From positions 9,855-36,066 of the forward strand of contig MGIN01000027.1 in NCBI GenBank assembly GCA_001793775.1: a stretch of DNA of 26,212 nt. The letters are read 5' to 3'. The DNA comes from Candidatus Wolfebacteria bacterium GWA1_42_9. Its GTDB lineage: Bacteria > Patescibacteriota > Minisyncoccia > UBA6257 > JAGOQP01. The first letter of the stretch is position 1. Every line of letters starts with the position of its first letter. Positions 14,964 through 20,677 of the stretch are shown here, in pieces. A program made the translations under genes and the position numbers. The notes beneath the pieces are model-generated. The model saw only the letters and a program-made list of their open reading frames with translations. It did no database searches and was not told the DNA's origin.

Positions 14964-14971
14964 GTGAATTA

Positions 14972-14980
14972 TGCTATAAT
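14972..14980 (+). promoter_or_regulatory. Extended -10 promoter, probably giving a leaderless mRNA
   Basis: TGCTATAAT ends 7 nt before the ATG at 14988. Confidence 0.6.
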
Positions 14981-14987
14981 ATATAAG

Positions 14988-15701
14988 ATGAGTTTTAAAA
15001 AGATAAAAATTTTAATACTTGTTATCGGCACCATGGCTGTCTTTTGGACCGTTAACCTGGCTTTGGCCGCCGAGCCGCTCTTACTTTTTTCCTGGAAAGC
15101 CCAGAACTTCGTTCCTGATTGGTTTGGAGGAAAATCTTTGCCTATCAACCAGACAAAAATTTTAATGTCCTTTGAAGCTGTCAGCCAGAGCCAAGCGGAT
15201 TTGGGTAAGATTATGGACGTCTCGGAAAAGGAGATTAGCTGGTATGTCAACGATAAAACGGTAGGTAAAGGGAAAGGATTAAAGTCTGTTACCGTTACCA
15301 AAGACGATTTTCCCCGGGATTCCATTGATGTCAAGATTAAGGGGGAGTTTTATGACGCTGATGCCAAAGAGAGTTATTTTGTCAACAAGTATTTTACCGT
15401 CCCTATCTCTGAACCGGAAATTGTTTTAAGCTACAAGAAAACGGAAAACTATTTTTCTTTGAACGAGACGGCTAGATTTGATCTATTTCCTTTCTTTTTT
15501 AACGTTGCCAGCGATTTTTTGGATATTGGATGGAGAGTGAATGAGCGGGAGATTAATCCTTTGCTCAGGGAGAATCTTTTTTTAGATTTGAAAGTGTCGG
15601 ATATGCCTCCCACTGGGCAGGTGAGAATTAGTGCTTCTGCCAAAAATGCCAGAGATGTGCTGGAAGATGCCTCTAAGTCGCTGATTTTTAAAGTTTATTA
15701 G
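14988..15701 (+). CDS. Secreted or surface protein, beta-strand-rich (possibly Ig-like)
   Basis: MSFKKIKILILVIGTMAVFWTVNLALA-AEP is a typical signal peptide. ATG at 14988 is preferred over the GTG at 14964. Confidence 0.8.
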   Translation: MSFKKIKILILVIGTMAVFWTVNLALAAEPLLLFSWKAQNFVPDWFGGKSLPINQTKILMSFEAVSQSQADLGKIMDVSEKEISWYVNDKTVGKGKGLKSVTVTKDDFPRDSIDVKIKGEFYDADAKESYFVNKYFTVPISEPEIVLSYKKTENYFSLNETARFDLFPFFFNVASDFLDIGWRVNEREINPLLRENLFLDLKVSDMPPTGQVRISASAKNARDVLEDASKSLIFKVY

Positions 15702-15715
15702 TATTAACTGCGTTC

Positions 15716-15760
15716 GCGGATTTACCCTCAAAAATTTTATCTGATAAAACTTAGGAGGGT
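15716..15760. repeat. ~45-bp palindromic element, intergenic copy (second copy inside mutM)
   Basis: ACCCTC/GAGGGT outer stem and TTTTATC-T-GATAAAA inner stem; 36/45 identical to 19928-19972; followed by 9-mers AACTGATTC AACTGATTG ATGCTGATA. Confidence 0.85.
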
Positions 15761-15796
15761 GAACTGATTCAACTGATTGATGCTGATAAAACTACT

Positions 15797-16834
15797 ATGA
15801 TGAATACTCTGGGGAAAATAATTATTATATTGGCCGTTGTCCTGATGGGGGTGAGTTTTTTTGCGGAGGCGGTTTTGGCGGAAACCTTTAATTTGGAGTA
15901 CCCGGATTTTGTCAACCCGGAGATAACCAAAACTCCGGCTGAGTTTATCAACAAGCTCTATATCTATGCTTTGGGGATATCAGGCACTTTGGCGGTGATG
16001 ATGATTGTTTACGGAGGGGTGAAATACGCTATTAATCCGGGAAACACATCGGCCCAGGGAGACGCCACCGACATTATCAAAAACGCTGTTTTTGGAGTTG
16101 TTCTCTTGGCAGGCGCCTATTTGATTTTGGAAACGATTAATCCGTCGCTGGTGATTTTAAAGAATCCGGGATTGGAAATGGTGCCAGTGTCAACCAGCAC
16201 TGAAGGAACAACTCCTCCACCCACAAAAGAAGAGGCTACCGAACTTATTAGAGTGGCTAAGTGGCTGTTGGATAATGAGGGTGGTAAATTTAGTTTTTCT
16301 GTCAACGCGACTTGCGGATCCATCTCCCATGCCAAAGGAAATCTGACAGATGTATCCAACGGAGAACTTCCTCTGGTCTGCAGTCCGGATTGTGTTTGTA
16401 AAAAAGGAGGAACGAGCGGGACGGTTACGTTAAATCTTAAGATGCTTAAAGGTCTCCAGTTTATTGTTATTAATTCCACCGTTCCGAAATCTGTGATTAC
16501 TAGTTTTACCGGAGGAAAACACAATACTACCTCTCAACACTACCAAGGGAACGCTGCCGACTTCTCTCCGGTGAATACCAGTCCGGACCAATGGGATAAA
16601 TTATTAACTAGTTTAAGAAACCCGAACGCCGGAGAAGCTTCTCTGGCTAAATGCGAGGCTCGTAAGTGGACGGATACTAATGGCAATGGTCAGAAAGATT
16701 CTCGAAAATCTGAGAGCAATCCTAATGGAGACGAGTACTCGACCGAGTTTTATAATTTTTGTTCTGATCTTTTTAATAACGCCTCATATCTTACTGGCAA
16801 GTTGGATAATATTCATATACATGCCAACTGGTAA
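15797..16834 (+). CDS. VirB2/TrbC-like CPR pilin domain fused to a C-terminal M15-type (LAS) zinc peptidase domain
   Basis: After a signal peptide: two hydrophobic helices with a YGGVKY...GN...A..IIKNAVFG...LILETINP pilin pattern. C-terminus has SQHYQGNAAD (SxHxxGxAxD, 16532-16561) and HIH (16814-16822). Confidence 0.8.
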   Translation: MMNTLGKIIIILAVVLMGVSFFAEAVLAETFNLEYPDFVNPEITKTPAEFINKLYIYALGISGTLAVMMIVYGGVKYAINPGNTSAQGDATDIIKNAVFGVVLLAGAYLILETINPSLVILKNPGLEMVPVSTSTEGTTPPPTKEEATELIRVAKWLLDNEGGKFSFSVNATCGSISHAKGNLTDVSNGELPLVCSPDCVCKKGGTSGTVTLNLKMLKGLQFIVINSTVPKSVITSFTGGKHNTTSQHYQGNAADFSPVNTSPDQWDKLLTSLRNPNAGEASLAKCEARKWTDTNGNGQKDSRKSESNPNGDEYSTEFYNFCSDLFNNASYLTGKLDNIHIHANW

Positions 16835-16836
16835 TC

Positions 16837-18069
16837 ATGTCTTCTAAAAAAAAGAAAGTCACAATATTGATTATTTTGGTCGTCCTGGCGGCGGCGGGGG
16901 CAGGAACTTTTTTTGCTTTAAAGTCTGGCGTAACTATTCCTTTTCTGGGACTATCTGAACAGCTAAGCAAACAGCCGGGAGTGGATATAGGCAAGAAACC
17001 TGTTTTGCAGCCGCCACAACAGGACAAAGATGTTTATGTGGAAGAAGACGACCTGGCAGCTTATTACCAAGAGCAAAAACAGAAACTTTTTGCTTTAACC
17101 GCCGAGCCAATAATTGACTATTGGGTAGCTTCTTCCACGGCCATTGGTGACACTGCCACCTCCTCCATTCTGGCGGCCAGTGTTTTTTATATCAATGAAA
17201 AAGGAGACATTCTTCAGGTTAAAGAGACGGGGAAGGCATCACCGATAGTTTCTTCTTCCTTTGGAAAACCCCTCTGGCTTAAACAAAACGTCTTAGGGAG
17301 CCAGATAGCGGTTAAGTTTGAATCGGGGAAATTTGTCTTGTTTGACGTCAAGAACAAATCCTGGCGGGAAATGGAAGACGGAGTAACGGCGGTGGATTTC
17401 TCTCCCGATGGCCAGAGAATCGCCTTTCTCAAGGAGAATCAAAGTCAGACATCGGTTTATATTCAAGACTTGGCCAAGGCTAAACAACCGGTAACTTTAA
17501 TAGTTTCTCTGACAGCGGTTGACTTTAATCTCCTGTGGACAGAAACCGGCTCGTTGGCACTGACACCCAAACCCTCTTATTTTGTTAACGGCCAAGCTTG
17601 GCTGATTAATTTGAGTTCTCGCTCTCTTCGCTGGCTGGGAGGAGGCAGTGGTTACTCTTTGGTTTTTTCTTCTCCGTTTAACTTCGGCCTGGAATTTTCC
17701 AGCTCTGCAAGAACAGAAAGTAAGATTGGTTTGATTGATAAGTCGGGAAAATCACTAGCGGAACTTTCCTTCTCCACCGTGGCAGATAAATGCTCTTTTT
17801 CTTTGGAAAAAAAGGTAGCTTTCTGTGCCGTTCCTTATTCTGCCAACAAATCCTCTGGGTTGGTTTTGCCGGACGACTTTTTAAAAAGAGCTGTTTACTT
17901 TAAGGATGAGATTTATCGGATAGATCTTGAATCTTCGGCGGTGGATATTGTTTTTGATCTGGAAGATACCCTTTTTGATATGGTTGATATCAAACACCGG
18001 AGCGACCAGCTGTTCTTCATTAATCGCTACGATAATCAACTCTACCTCTACAATCTAGGATCATTATAA
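16837..18069 (+). CDS. Membrane-anchored TolB/WD40-like beta-propeller protein
   Basis: KKKK followed by an N-terminal TM helix; VDFSPDGQRIAFL blade motif and repeated beta-strand pattern. Confidence 0.7.
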   Translation: MSSKKKKVTILIILVVLAAAGAGTFFALKSGVTIPFLGLSEQLSKQPGVDIGKKPVLQPPQQDKDVYVEEDDLAAYYQEQKQKLFALTAEPIIDYWVASSTAIGDTATSSILAASVFYINEKGDILQVKETGKASPIVSSSFGKPLWLKQNVLGSQIAVKFESGKFVLFDVKNKSWREMEDGVTAVDFSPDGQRIAFLKENQSQTSVYIQDLAKAKQPVTLIVSLTAVDFNLLWTETGSLALTPKPSYFVNGQAWLINLSSRSLRWLGGGSGYSLVFSSPFNFGLEFSSSARTESKIGLIDKSGKSLAELSFSTVADKCSFSLEKKVAFCAVPYSANKSSGLVLPDDFLKRAVYFKDEIYRIDLESSAVDIVFDLEDTLFDMVDIKHRSDQLFFINRYDNQLYLYNLGSL

Positions 18070-18070
18070 A

Positions 18071-19405
18071 ATGAATAAGGAGAACCCCCACAGTTCAAAA
18101 CTGACTAAATATTTGAACCAGCCTGAGTTTCGGCCGGTTTTTTATCTGGTGCCTTTGATTGCGGCGGCGGCCGTCATTAACGTCATCTATCTTTCGGGAA
18201 TTTGGCTTTTTGTCAGCACCGGTATTTTAATCATTTCGGGGGCGTTGATGGTGGCTATTAGTTGGGTCCTAGCCAAAGCCAATTTAAACATTAAAATCAA
18301 AACTCTTCAGATGGACAGTATTATTTCCCATCTGCCATCGGGAGTTTTGGCCTATGACAATGACTTCAACGTTTTAATCTTTAATCCGGCCGCTCAGGAA
18401 ATTTTTGGCCTTTCCCAATCAGAAATTTTTGCAAGAAAGCTTTCAGCGGAGATGGCCTCCGACCCGAAATTCAAACTCCTGGCTCAGGTCATTTTTCCCT
18501 CTTTGGCGCCGACGGTTGTCAAAAGATCGGAGCCGGGAACCTATCCCCAGATAGTGGACATTTCTTTTAGCGACCCCTCTTTGGATTTGAGAGTAGTGAC
18601 CGACCGGGTTGCCGACGAAACGGGAAAGATAACCGGTTTTGTTAAATTAATCACTAACCGCACCCGGGAGATGGAACTTTTAAAGTCAAAAACCGAATTC
18701 ATCACCGTCGCCGCCCATCAACTAAGAACTCCTTTAACCGCCATTAACTGGTCGTTTGAATCGCTGGAATCGGCCAATCTTCCTCCCCAACAGAAGGAAT
18801 TAGTAGACACCGGATTTATGGCTGCCAAGAAAATGCTTAAAACCGTCAACGACCTTCTGGACGTTTCCAAAATCGAAGAGGGAAAATTCGGCTATCAATT
18901 TGAAGAGGTCAATCTGGTCTCTTACCTGGAGGAAATATTGGCTCAGAGCAACGATTTCGCCAAACAACTCGGAATTAAGCTTTATTTTCAAAGGCCGGCC
19001 AATTCCAATCTGATGGTCTTCATGGACAAACAGAAAGTAAGCATGGTTCTTTCCAATCTTTTGGACAATGCCATTAAATACAATGTGGAAAACGGGGAAG
19101 TGACGGTGTCGGTTGAAGAGGAAAAAGACGAGCCTTTTATTAGAGTTTCAGTTAAAGATACGGGCATCGGTATCCCCGCTGATCAGATAGATAAGTTATT
19201 CACTAAATTCTTCCGGGCTGAAAATGTTGCCCGGTATTCTCCCGACGGAACAGGGATGGGCCTTTATATTGCCAGAAACGTCGTTGTTCGCCACGGTGGG
19301 CGGATTTGGGCCGAGTCGGAATTGAACCGGGGAACCACTTTTTATTTTACCTTACCGACTAAACAAGAAGTTATTCCCAAAAGGGAAATGATAGAGTTTG
19401 AGTAA
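18071..19405 (+). CDS. Sensor histidine kinase (two TM helices, PAS, HisKA, HATPase_c), no cognate response regulator in the window
   Basis: H box VAAHQLRTPLT, N box NLLDNAIKY, G1 DTGIGIP, F box LFTKFFRA, G2 GTGMGLYIA; PAS-like FNPAAQEIFG. Confidence 0.93.
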   Translation: MNKENPHSSKLTKYLNQPEFRPVFYLVPLIAAAAVINVIYLSGIWLFVSTGILIISGALMVAISWVLAKANLNIKIKTLQMDSIISHLPSGVLAYDNDFNVLIFNPAAQEIFGLSQSEIFARKLSAEMASDPKFKLLAQVIFPSLAPTVVKRSEPGTYPQIVDISFSDPSLDLRVVTDRVADETGKITGFVKLITNRTREMELLKSKTEFITVAAHQLRTPLTAINWSFESLESANLPPQQKELVDTGFMAAKKMLKTVNDLLDVSKIEEGKFGYQFEEVNLVSYLEEILAQSNDFAKQLGIKLYFQRPANSNLMVFMDKQKVSMVLSNLLDNAIKYNVENGEVTVSVEEEKDEPFIRVSVKDTGIGIPADQIDKLFTKFFRAENVARYSPDGTGMGLYIARNVVVRHGGRIWAESELNRGTTFYFTLPTKQEVIPKREMIEFE

Positions 19406-19433
19406 AGAGCTTTGTCTCCACTCTGGTGGAGTA

Positions 19434-19602
19434 ACAAAACCTTTACCCCGCTCCAATTTTGCCAGTGTTTATCCTGCGGAGCGCGGGTACCGAATAGGTA
19501 CACCCCATTACGAGCGAAGCGCTTCGCCCCAGGGAGGGATGGAGTTACTCACTCCTCGCACTTCGCTTGGTGAGACAGAAGCAAAATTGGGGCGGGGTGC
19601 TC
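19434..19602. mobile_element. MITE/REP-like non-coding element with 18-bp terminal inverted repeats (long copy)
   Basis: ACCCCGCTCCAATTTTGC (19445-62) and GCAAAATTGGGGCGGGGT (19581-98) match 17/18; internal hairpins GTACC/GGTAC, GCGAAG/CTTCGC and GGAGT/ACTCC; related copy at 20617-20677. Confidence 0.7.
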
Positions 19603-19649
19603 AATACTGTAGTTATTCTTCATTATCATTCAGAATAAACATTATTGGC

Positions 19650-20576
19650 ATGCCCGAACTTCCTGAGGTTCAAACCATCGTCACTGATCTGAAAAGGAGA
19701 ATTATCGGCAAGAAGATTGCCGATTTCTGGACCGACACTCCCCGAATTATAAAAGGTTTCTCGCCGAACGATTTTAAAAGAGAAGTTGTCGGGTTTGAAA
19801 TCGCCGACGTTCAAAGACGGGGGAAAAACATTCTTTTTTATCTTGAAAAAACAATAAGAAAAAGAAAGGATAAAAAAATTATGCTGGCTCATCAGAAAAT
19901 GACGGGCCATTTCTTGATTGGGCGCTGGCGGATTCACCCTCCAAAATTTTCTGAAGGAAAACTTAGGGGGGTAAAAAGGGTTGATGCCACGGTAAAAGGA
20001 CCAATTGCCTCCGATCCCTATAACCAGTATATCAGAGTCATTTTTAGGCTAGATAACGGTTGGGAACTGGGCCTCTCCGATTTGAGGAAATTTGCCCGAA
20101 TTACCGTCGGCCCTCCCCAAAAAATAGAACACTCGAAAGAAATCGCTTCTCTTGGACCCGATGCTCTTTCTCCAAAATTTTCCCCAAAATATCTTTTTTC
20201 TGTTCTCCAGAAGAGAAAAAAGTTGATTAAGCCAATTCTTCTGGAGCAAAACGTAATGGCCGGAGTAGGCAATATCTACGCCGACGAGGCTCTTTTTCTG
20301 GCCAAGATTAATCCTCAAAGAAAAGCCGCCGGCGTTAAGCGTTCGGAGGTTGAGAGATTGATTAAATCTATTAAAAAAGTTCTTCAAAAGTCTATTCGTT
20401 TAAAAGGGACCTCGGTTATCGACTACCGAGATACTTATGGCCGGAGAGGAAAGTACGACAAAGTTCGCTGGGTTTATGATAAGGAAAAGCTTCCCTGCCG
20501 AATCTGCCGGACGCTGATAAAAAGAGTCAAAATCGGTCAACGCTCTTCCTATTTTTGCCCCCGCTGTCAGAAGTAA
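19650..20576 (+). CDS. mutM: Formamidopyrimidine-DNA glycosylase Fpg/MutM
   Basis: The true start is MPELPEV at 19650 because the catalytic Pro2 needs it. Also RRGK, HQKMTG, GVGNIYADE and the CRIC...CPRCQ zinc finger. Confidence 0.96.
   Translation: MPELPEVQTIVTDLKRRIIGKKIADFWTDTPRIIKGFSPNDFKREVVGFEIADVQRRGKNILFYLEKTIRKRKDKKIMLAHQKMTGHFLIGRWRIHPPKFSEGKLRGVKRVDATVKGPIASDPYNQYIRVIFRLDNGWELGLSDLRKFARITVGPPQKIEHSKEIASLGPDALSPKFSPKYLFSVLQKRKKLIKPILLEQNVMAGVGNIYADEALFLAKINPQRKAAGVKRSEVERLIKSIKKVLQKSIRLKGTSVIDYRDTYGRRGKYDKVRWVYDKEKLPCRICRTLIKRVKIGQRSSYFCPRCQK
19928..19972. repeat. ~45-bp palindromic element, in-frame copy inside mutM
   Basis: GCGGATTCACCCTCCAAAATTTTCTGAAGGAAAACTTAGGGGGGT; encodes RIHPPKFSEGKLRG. 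Confidence 0.85.
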
Positions 20577-20616: not shown

Positions 20617-20677
20617 ACAAAACCTTTACCCCGCCCTAATTTTGCTTCTGTCTCACCAAGCGAAGTGCGGGGTGCTC
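20617..20677. mobile_element. MITE/REP-like element (short copy)
   Basis: Same ACAAAACCTTTACCCCGC start and GCGGGGTGCTC end as 19434-19602. 20628-20669 is the reverse complement of 19557-19598 (41/42). Confidence 0.7.

Follow-up and report, generated by a model that had tools for sequence, protein, structure and literature searches.

We analyzed a stretch of 26,212 nucleotides (the window) on contig MGIN01000027.1 of Candidatus Wolfebacteria bacterium GWA1_42_9, in which a palindrome of about 45 bp occurs once between genes (copy A) and once within mutM, the gene for formamidopyrimidine-DNA glycosylase (copy B). Both sites are likely to be copies of a non-autonomous foldback element of Patescibacteria (Candidate Phyla Radiation, CPR), which shares its ends with a small cassette encoding a GIY-YIG nuclease and lands in genes. 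What is new here is the arm-matched GIY-YIG cassette and the evidence from empty sites. The genome under study (G000) is a typical CPR/Patescibacteria metagenome-assembled genome of 550 kb in 32 contigs, with 42% GC and 86% completeness. C-numbers denote its contigs, other G-numbers other genomes, and L-numbers extracted loci; G006 and G009 are the two nearest relatives of G000, and P0003 is the closest MutM homolog (86% identity).

The two copies in the window fold into the same hairpin

Copy A, GCGGATTTACCCTCAAAAATTTTATCTGATAAAACTTAGGAGGGT (15716-15760), and copy B, GCGGATTCACCCTCCAAAATTTTCTGAAGGAAAACTTAGGGGGGT (19928-19972), aligned without gaps and were identical at 36 of 45 positions. Six of the nine differences fell in the hairpin tip (TTTTATC-T-GATAAAA versus TTTTC-TGAAG-GAAAA), and direct reading and folding confirmed the statement of an earlier note on this DNA that both copies form hairpins. 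The predicted minimum free energy of the RNA was -13.3 kcal/mol for copy A and -15.1 kcal/mol for copy B on the + strand (z -3.1 and -2.0), and -14.5 and -16.7 kcal/mol on the - strand (z -3.9 and -3.3). A repeat finder reported the pair as a 54-nt direct repeat (78%) and, because each copy is palindromic, also as an inverted repeat. When the core was compared together with 12-nt flanks, each window copy matched copies on other contigs at 47 of 61 positions and its partner in the window at 43 of 61.

A covariance model built from 75 copies of other genomes recovered copy A with 49 bits (E 2.5e-12) and copy B with 54 bits (E 8.8e-14), and gave no further site above 16.4 bits in the window; searched against Rfam, the window had no match at the gathering threshold. 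The conserved unit proved to be about 43 nt long (15721-15763 and 19933-19975) rather than the 45-mer, the first 5–8 nt of which (GCGGATT) form a 5′ extension specific to G000, where GCGGATTY is common to five or six copies. Copy A begins 14 nt past the stop codon of an open reading frame (ORF; 14964-15701) and lies 36 nt ahead of the ATG (15797) of a T4SS-pilin-like gene, and neither a terminator-like site nor a convincing promoter-like site was predicted there.

The hairpin family in the genome and its conserved structure

A regular expression for the hairpin followed by nhmmer identified 19 short copies on 15 contigs of G000, and the covariance model identified about 20 loci. The genome also holds about seven long forms, with arms 50–266 nt apart. 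When one genome per prokaryotic species was scanned with the pattern, at least 116 stretches were returned, in at least 70 assemblies outside G000. The earlier note had proposed a structure-conserved miniature element that inserts into genes as loops, and had named a covariance-model scan of this and related genomes as a way to check it; the additional copies bear out that proposal.

The consensus of about 43 nt reads TTYA-CCCTCC-N-AA-N-TTTT-(2 bp + triloop)-AAAA-N-TT-N-GGAGGG-TRAA, beyond which the flanks are random. A short copy is composed of two terminal inverted repeats of about 18–20 nt and a 7-nt apex with two variable base pairs and a triloop. In most copies, one strand has A.C and the other G.T at core position 11/27, which gives the element a polarity; both window copies have the A.C orientation on the + strand. 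Among the 75 distinct copies from other genomes, position 18/34 is an A.C mismatch in 63, apex pair 23/29 is paired in 72 (GC 35, UA 17, CG 9, AU 5, GU 5), pair 24/28 is paired in 63, and the outer pairs 5/47 and 8/44 alternate (UA, UG, CG / AU, GU, GC). The covariation score was 0.157, compared with 0.096 for shuffled alignments, none of 500 of which reached 0.157, and with 0.03–0.09 for slid registers; many columns are invariant owing to how the copies were collected, and the free columns alone count as evidence of covariation. Direct repeats of at least 8 nt (8–13 nt) flank 10 copies, with 1.6 expected.

Copies within genes are in frame and resemble insertions

Seven of the 19 short copies of G000 lie in Pfam-confirmed genes, and all seven are in frame. 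The hosts are mutM, topA, ybeY, and genes for a DUF4147/MOFRL glycerate-kinase-like protein, a heavy-metal P-type ATPase, a Gmad2/Germane protein, and a pilin-like protein; the remaining short copies are intergenic, including two in the 16S leader. In other genomes, among the matches listed, 43 of 120 copies lie in ORFs that stay open for at least 40 amino acids (aa) on both sides, compared with 63% of random positions. Frame preservation was tabulated as the earlier note had suggested, and these genic copies, whose hosts include uvrB and valS, use the three frames 15, 12, and 16 times. The resulting peptides are xPPKF..KLGRV, TLxNF..NLGG, and PSQIL..KTWEG, and every copy read in the third frame is of a variant lacking TAA and TAG. 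Such an open-frame pattern is what translation combined with purifying selection would predict.

The true start of mutM is at position 19650 (MPELPEVQ), and the extension of the ORF back to 19398 is non-coding repeat DNA. Copy B is read in the mutM frame as R-I-H-P-P-K-F-S-E-G-K-L-R-G-V, as the earlier note had stated, and none of 120 MutM homologs contains the insert peptide. The note would have been refuted had no further copies existed and had orthologs across the clade shared the peptide; the data contradict both. The empty site was read at the protein level: the MutM of P0003 reads GRWRIR--KISKNK----FQIIPAVAGP and that of G000 reads GRWRIHPPKFSEGKLRGVKRVDATVKGP. The loop of P0003 is six residues shorter than that of G000, and a shorter loop was found in all 16 aligned relatives. 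The extra loop postulated in the earlier note therefore exists relative to homologs, but it did not arise by a clean 45-bp insertion; the event is a patch replacement in which about nine codons became 15, a net gain of six residues. Judged from this comparison, the mutM copy is a recent event in the G000 lineage, later than its split from the P0003 lineage. A metagenome scan for the P0003 mutM DNA yielded relatives of at most 47% identity.

The GCGGATT extension overlaps the codons W-R-I of mutM. Because W-R-I precedes the junction in the element-free P0003 as well, the extension at this locus may be target sequence that happens to match the donor. In the AlphaFold model of MutM (mean predicted local distance difference test score, pLDDT, 81.5), residues 101-110 have a mean of 57, with residues 104-106 below 50, and this weakest block of the N-terminal domain coincides with the insert.

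Occupied and empty sites were also compared in other proteins. At one site in UvrB, most of 30 CPR sequences read DYFPKDFLLFIDESH, and one Nealsonbacteria and one Saccharibacteria genome carry the hairpin there (+13 aa). The empty uvrB site is TTCCCCAAAGATTTT, in which TTC CCC AAA GAT TTT is similar to the arm CCTCCCAAATTTT. YbeY of G000 is 13 aa longer than that of G009, and G006 has a solo left arm, ATC CAC CCT CCT TTA. A TopA loop common to G000 and G006 is 9 aa longer than in G009, and the arms in G006 have decayed by point changes. Because G006 retains the YbeY left arm and a decayed TopA copy, some insertions are, by this comparison, older than the split from G006. At four further UvrB loci (L217, L221, L229, and L231), 3–5 extra residues occupy the hairpin site (LYNS, LHHFGRDG, RYAFGNN, THRFGK), and the DNA retains arm fragments, e.g. 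TTT ACC CAC CGA TTT GGT AAA; these short inserts look like scars of imprecise loss or deletion.

The family is widespread and very patchy

Nearly all pattern matches were in Patescibacteria, spanning Saccharibacteria and Nealson-, Pacei-, Zambryski-, Sungii-, Lipton-, Azam-, Falkow-, Wildermuth-, Staskawicz-, Portnoy-, and Yanofskybacteria. The strict pattern gave no match in an even sample of 400 phylum genomes or in 40 relatives. The covariance model detected the family in four of 21 further families within the order and, among 19 genomes of the family of G000 itself, gave only two marginal matches (E about 0.005–0.009). An Rfam search over five element-bearing loci gave no matches besides tRNA, 16S, and a weak one to a group I intron. 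No match was found among 2.9 million viral contigs, leaving a phage vector unsupported. Because the element is scattered over many classes yet absent from the sampled phylum genomes, it appears to be mobile, and its distribution is best fitted by horizontal spread with lineage-specific bursts, not by an ancient conserved RNA.

These data also bear on the idea that the hairpin is a selected cis element recruited repeatedly, whether as a CCUCC segment sequestering a Shine-Dalgarno-like GGAGG, as a stem for RNase III or other processing, or as a protein-binding DNA cruciform. The arms are CCCTCC/GGAGGG, their pairing is kept with covariation, and GGAGGG stands 4–14 nt ahead of an ATG in several intergenic copies (G000 C12:2355, where the distance is 9 nt, and L025, L031, L078, L088, and L115); in addition, one tRNA lies between arms, besides the two copies in the 16S leader. 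However, start-codon proximity was found for 17 of 120 copies, compared with about 19% expected when both strands are considered, so there is no enrichment, and with one of 46 tRNAs flanked by arms a general role as a tRNA/rRNA processing stem is rejected. The patchiness is unlike that of a conserved function, genic copies use three frames and both orientations relative to the host gene (roughly 16 versus 10 determinable copies), old copies decay in relatives, Rfam has no match, and the arms bound a nuclease gene. We therefore regard a selected cis function as improbable.

A GIY-YIG cassette has the same arms

On contig C15 of G000 (C15:1617-1923), the arms TATTTAACCCTCCCAACTTTTTAGAC and GTCTAAAAAGTTGGGAGGGTAAAGTA surround a 91-aa ORF (C15:1645-1917, L234) that encodes a GIY-YIG domain (PF01541, E 1e-11) and for which the nearest structures in the PDB are 1ZG2 and 1YWL, both stand-alone UPF0213 proteins. 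The cassette lies between rpsP and khpA. This spacer is cassette-free in G009 (33 nt) and in G006 (about 110 nt), and the sequences on either side of it align across the three genomes. The same arms, spaced 248–278 nt apart, were found in 16 stretches from 16 other CPR assemblies, and all 16 encode a GIY-YIG homolog (46–73% identity) in the same layout, with the ATG just past the left arm and the right arm encoding a C-terminal KKLGG and the stop codon. The cassettes are about 310–330 bp in size, and their sole gene, of about 90 aa, encodes the catalytic domain only. Short copies are also present in five of the 16 cassette assemblies, as they are in G000 (chance estimate, fewer than 0.1 shared assemblies). 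The earlier note had envisaged an autonomous nuclease gene, HUH or other, bounded by the motif; such a gene was found, and it encodes a GIY-YIG rather than an HUH protein. Taken together, the shared arms and assemblies suggest that the GIY-YIG cassette is probably the parent element of the short hairpins.

The inverted repeats of the cassettes run a few bases inside the TTTT and differ there between cassettes (GGAT/ATCC, TAGAC/GTCTA, TATAC/GTATA, etc.), which offers an easy explanation of how the compensated apex arose in the short copies. The earlier note was right that the central tip still pairs; the repeats of the parent cassettes would explain this better than selection at each locus.

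G000 has seven small GIY-YIG paralogs and its relatives have 1–4 each. Different inverted repeats flank several of them, and that of one paralog (ACCCCCACAC...) matches another short hairpin of G000. The hairpin ACCCCCACACTAATTCTATTAGTGTGGGGGT (C18:3085-3115) matches inverted repeats (ACCCCCACACCTAATGGACTT...) around a small GIY-YIG gene of G009 (L333), which suggests a second nuclease/hairpin pair. As for the suggestion that several element families remodel proteins of this genome, other inverted-repeat families are indeed seen, and remodelling by them is plausible.

Alternative routes of mobilization

The cassette bears on two other explanations of how the hairpins spread. One is that they are elements of the repetitive extragenic palindromic (REP) type, including the composite form REPIN, mobilized by an HUH transposase (a REP-associated tyrosine transposase, RAYT, or an IS200/IS605-like enzyme). 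Short imperfect palindromes with an asymmetric mismatch that gives polarity resemble the strand-specific hairpins of Y1 transposases, and three of five other element-bearing genomes (G440, G443, and G444) have an ORF with a Y1_Tnp domain. Presence of such a gene is, however, unrelated to copy number, with no PF01797 match in G000 (about 20 copies, 86% complete), G442 (12 copies), or G441. The copies lack a GTAG or CGTC end tag, about a third of them are intragenic, and the motif bounds no Y1 gene but does bound the GIY-YIG gene. Mobilization by an HUH enzyme is accordingly very improbable.

Three other candidates were rejected. A DUF559/Vsr-like nuclease partner was discarded because the one DUF559/MTES_1575 gene of G000 is not bounded by arms and such a gene occurs in one of the five other genomes. 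For target-primed insertion by a reverse transcriptase, considered because the flanking repeats are variable, there was no RVT_1 match in G000, G442, or G444. A composite transposon on C11, where three copies surround the lepA region, was dismissed as the genes there are lepA and an ftsB-like gene.

The other explanation dispenses with a dedicated enzyme: the hairpins would spread by generic microhomology processes (template switching, or illegitimate recombination after DNA uptake), and the GIY-YIG gene would be cargo like the tRNA-Val gene described below. Several targets do resemble the element (the UvrB site versus CCTCCCAAATTTT, and the W-R-I codons of mutM versus GCGGATT), the copy in a pilin gene is flanked on either side by GGNTTTACYCTC, and the junctions are variable, with 8–13-nt repeats or small deletions. 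The cargo is varied, comprising tRNA-Val and interiors of 50, 70, and 113 nt, and no protein family recurs in more than six of 116 element loci. On the other side, in all 16 cassettes of the right size one and the same gene is found, oriented alike and with the stop codon in the right arm, which makes it a co-evolved unit and not random cargo; other GIY-YIG paralogs have inverted repeats of their own; and a generic process leaves the near-identical 14–18-nt arms in distant CPR classes unexplained. We consider spread without a dedicated enzyme unlikely.

A cassette-related foldback element remains the reading we prefer, and several observations weigh against it. The apex of the mutM and topA copies aligns with residues of element-free relatives, and part of the supposed element in these genes may be target-derived. 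The cassette of G000 reads LKKYNLG, with Tyr where all 16 homologs have His (xHN), and its nuclease may be inactive or catalytically impaired. The A.C mismatch typical of the short copies is seen in none of the 16 full cassettes, which mostly have C-G; because none has the mismatch, none of them appears to be the precise parent of the main lineage of short copies. G442 holds its 12 short copies with no cognate cassette in the assembly. The junctions are irregular, with 8–13-nt flanking repeats in only about 7% of copies and small target deletions at some (mutM), a combination that fits no known transposase. Finally, the action of the nuclease on the arms is presumed, and open frames are the basis for regarding the inserts as translated.

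A possible mechanism

[quoted passage not shown] New copies could land anywhere; within genes, those that are free of stop codons, a multiple of three in length, and located in tolerant surface loops would survive and be translated. Because target sites are arm-like and junctions irregular, movement would probably involve a nuclease-made break followed by repair that copies another copy of the element via microhomology. Old copies would decay by point mutation or internal deletion into short scars that alter loop length, and the compensated tip would stem from parent cassettes that differ in their inner inverted repeats. The picture that emerges is one of many nuclease-and-repeat lineages, each of which might leave gene-less hairpins.

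Related repeats in the window and in the genome

The features of the window are collected in Table 1. The long form upstream of mutM has the arm architecture TTTACCC-GC-rich-AATTTT, as in the hairpin family. Within 19398-19649 and 20617-20672, the long form and the piece of its right end downstream of mutM are both preceded by an identical ACAAAACC.

Table 1. Hairpin copies, mutM, and related repeats in the window
Feature	Coordinates	Strand	Description
Intergenic short copy A	15716..15763	+	Core 15724-15760, outer stem 15721-15763, 5′ extension GCGGA 15716-20
Related long-form element, upstream of mutM	19443..19598	+	Arms TTTACCCCGCTCCAATTTTGC and GCAAAATTGGGGCGGGGT, 113-nt interior
mutM (formamidopyrimidine-DNA glycosylase), 308 aa	19650..20576	+	Pfam Fapy_DNA_glyco, H2TH, zf-FPG; alignment with 16 homologs
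Short copy B, in frame in mutM	19928..19975	+	Core 19936-19972; encodes RIHPPKFSEGKLRGV(K), MutM residues 94-109
Partial inverted copy of the right end of 19443-19598, downstream of mutM	20626..20672	+	45 nt, 96% complementary to 19554-19598

Elsewhere in G000, three copies (C1:6440-6525, C15:8545-8625, and C32:4715-4790) have a further 33-nt 5′ module in common (GTATGCGAAAAGCGTCGCYAAAGCGGTATGTT). Two of the three also carry a complementary 3′ piece, giving a nested hairpin of about 85 nt, and the arms show a compensated change between these copies (CCCTCC/GGAGGG versus CCCGCC/GGCGGG). A half element on C14 (C14:17375-17420, L277:1904-1949) consists of the apex and the right arm, AAACTTAGGAGGGT, without the left arm, and lies in frame in a 104-aa ORF adjoining the DUF559/MTES_1575 nuclease gene. 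In the pilin-like gene at C6:8640-8730 (L241), the copy is flanked by GGC TTT ACC CTC and GGG TTT ACT CTC, and the prepilin motif G-F-T-L occurs twice (NNNGFTL-TKFFRKNLG-GFTLVELIVV), providing two candidate peptidase sites; the pilin leader is itself similar to the left arm of the element.

Arms of the family directly flank a complete tRNA-Val(CAC) at C15:14635-14830 (L235:1636-1831). The unit stands between a 12-nt piece that equals the 5′ end of the tRNA-Val(CAC) of G009 and a 3′ tRNA-Val remnant, whose anticodon arm is identical at about 27 of 30 positions by eye and whose acceptor 3′ strand mismatches the 5′ piece. From this arrangement, an older tRNA-Val gene was apparently interrupted by the unit and replaced by it. 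In the 16S gene (C3:2247-4228, - strand; L276:3440-3620), the 5′ end (TTTGAGAGTTTGATCCTAGCTCAGGATGAAC) is present twice, around an insert of about 100 nt that starts with CCTGCCTGCCGGCAGGCAGGG; the latter motif also abuts long forms on two other contigs, C4 and C9, as well as a GIY-YIG gene in the 5′ end of a tRNA-Ser (C6:38848). The 16S of G000 further contains a weak group I intron match and a degenerate GIY-YIG ORF (C3:2572-2793). Seven tRNA isoacceptors are doubled (Glu-TTC, Pro-TGG, Leu-TAA, Gly-TCC, Arg-TCT, Gln-TTG, and Asp-GTC), which in a 550-kb assembly points to local duplication events or to a degree of strain redundancy within the bin.

Comparison with known elements

Literature searches returned no paper linking CPR bacteria with palindromic elements in coding genes, and none describing GIY-YIG cassettes flanked by inverted repeats. 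The closest analogs among palindromes in genes are the Rickettsia palindromic elements (RPEs), which, according to the summary of Ogata et al. (2000) in PMC10969869, are about 150 bp long, occur in Rickettsia only, and comprise ten families, each with a conserved peptide read in one frame. Similar to RPEs as portrayed there, the CPR palindromes are both intergenic and in frame in unrelated housekeeping genes, occur in a host with a reduced genome, encode fold-compatible peptides, and contain no transposase (PMC10969869). By contrast, the CPR element is 37–45 nt long, appears to be unrelated in sequence, uses three frames, is scattered over numerous classes of CPR, and has its ends in common with a nuclease cassette; no nuclease-cassette partner is described for RPEs in that summary (PMC10969869).

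Like MITEs, the short hairpins are gene-less and have two terminal inverted repeats that also bound a longer, gene-carrying element, and their copies are dispersed, patchy, and of mixed age. They differ in that the putative parent encodes a GIY-YIG nuclease of about 90 aa instead of a DDE, HUH, or serine transposase, in that there is no fixed-length target-site duplication, and in the size of the short form, which falls well below that of usual MITEs. With REP/REPIN sequences they have in common an imperfect palindrome of 20–40 nt, many copies, and an asymmetry that defines polarity (PMC3733652, PMC3337134). The CPR ends are TTYA/TRAA, without the GTAG or CGTC tag given in the former (PMC3733652), the copies are not restricted to extragenic DNA, and the CPR genomes richest in the element have no RAYT.

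In a 2024 study (PMC11270868), GIY-YIG genes were reported in insertions of CPR rRNA genes that resemble neither intron group and are unlike classical homing. Our observations are similar in that small GIY-YIG genes behave as inserted DNA in CPR, and the 16S of G000 likewise has a degenerate GIY-YIG ORF. The terms 'inverted repeat', 'hairpin', and 'palindrom' do not occur in the text of the 2024 study, and flanking repeats or hairpin derivatives were evidently not described in it (PMC11270868). Free-standing GIY-YIG homing endonucleases are a further comparison. Unlike I-TevI-type enzymes, the cassette protein has the catalytic domain only, without a DNA-binding domain.

Implications

Unexplained insertions are a known trait of CPR/Patescibacteria proteins and rRNAs, and a 37–45-nt foldback element that is tolerated as a flexible loop in essential genes (mutM, topA, ybeY, uvrB, and valS) offers a concrete source for many of them, with insertion hot spots turning into sites of loop-length evolution. 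The repeats also cause over-extension of ORFs, as in the false 84-aa N-terminus of mutM, and can break CPR assemblies and alignments. The candidate autonomous partner is about 330 bp; if its nuclease mobilizes the repeats, the cassette would be among the smallest self-contained mobile elements known and, to our knowledge, the first MITE-parent pair built on a GIY-YIG enzyme. More broadly, the hairpins could be miniatures of a so far undescribed class of minimal prokaryotic mobile elements, in which a GIY-YIG protein of about 90 residues (UPF0213/YhbQ-type) is framed by inverted repeats of 20–26 bp, with many lineages in CPR that each spawn hairpins. This wider proposal is tentative, and we rate it as slightly more doubtful than probable; such elements may then be a main source of in-frame loop insertions and length variation in the housekeeping proteins and the rRNA and tRNA genes of CPR bacteria.

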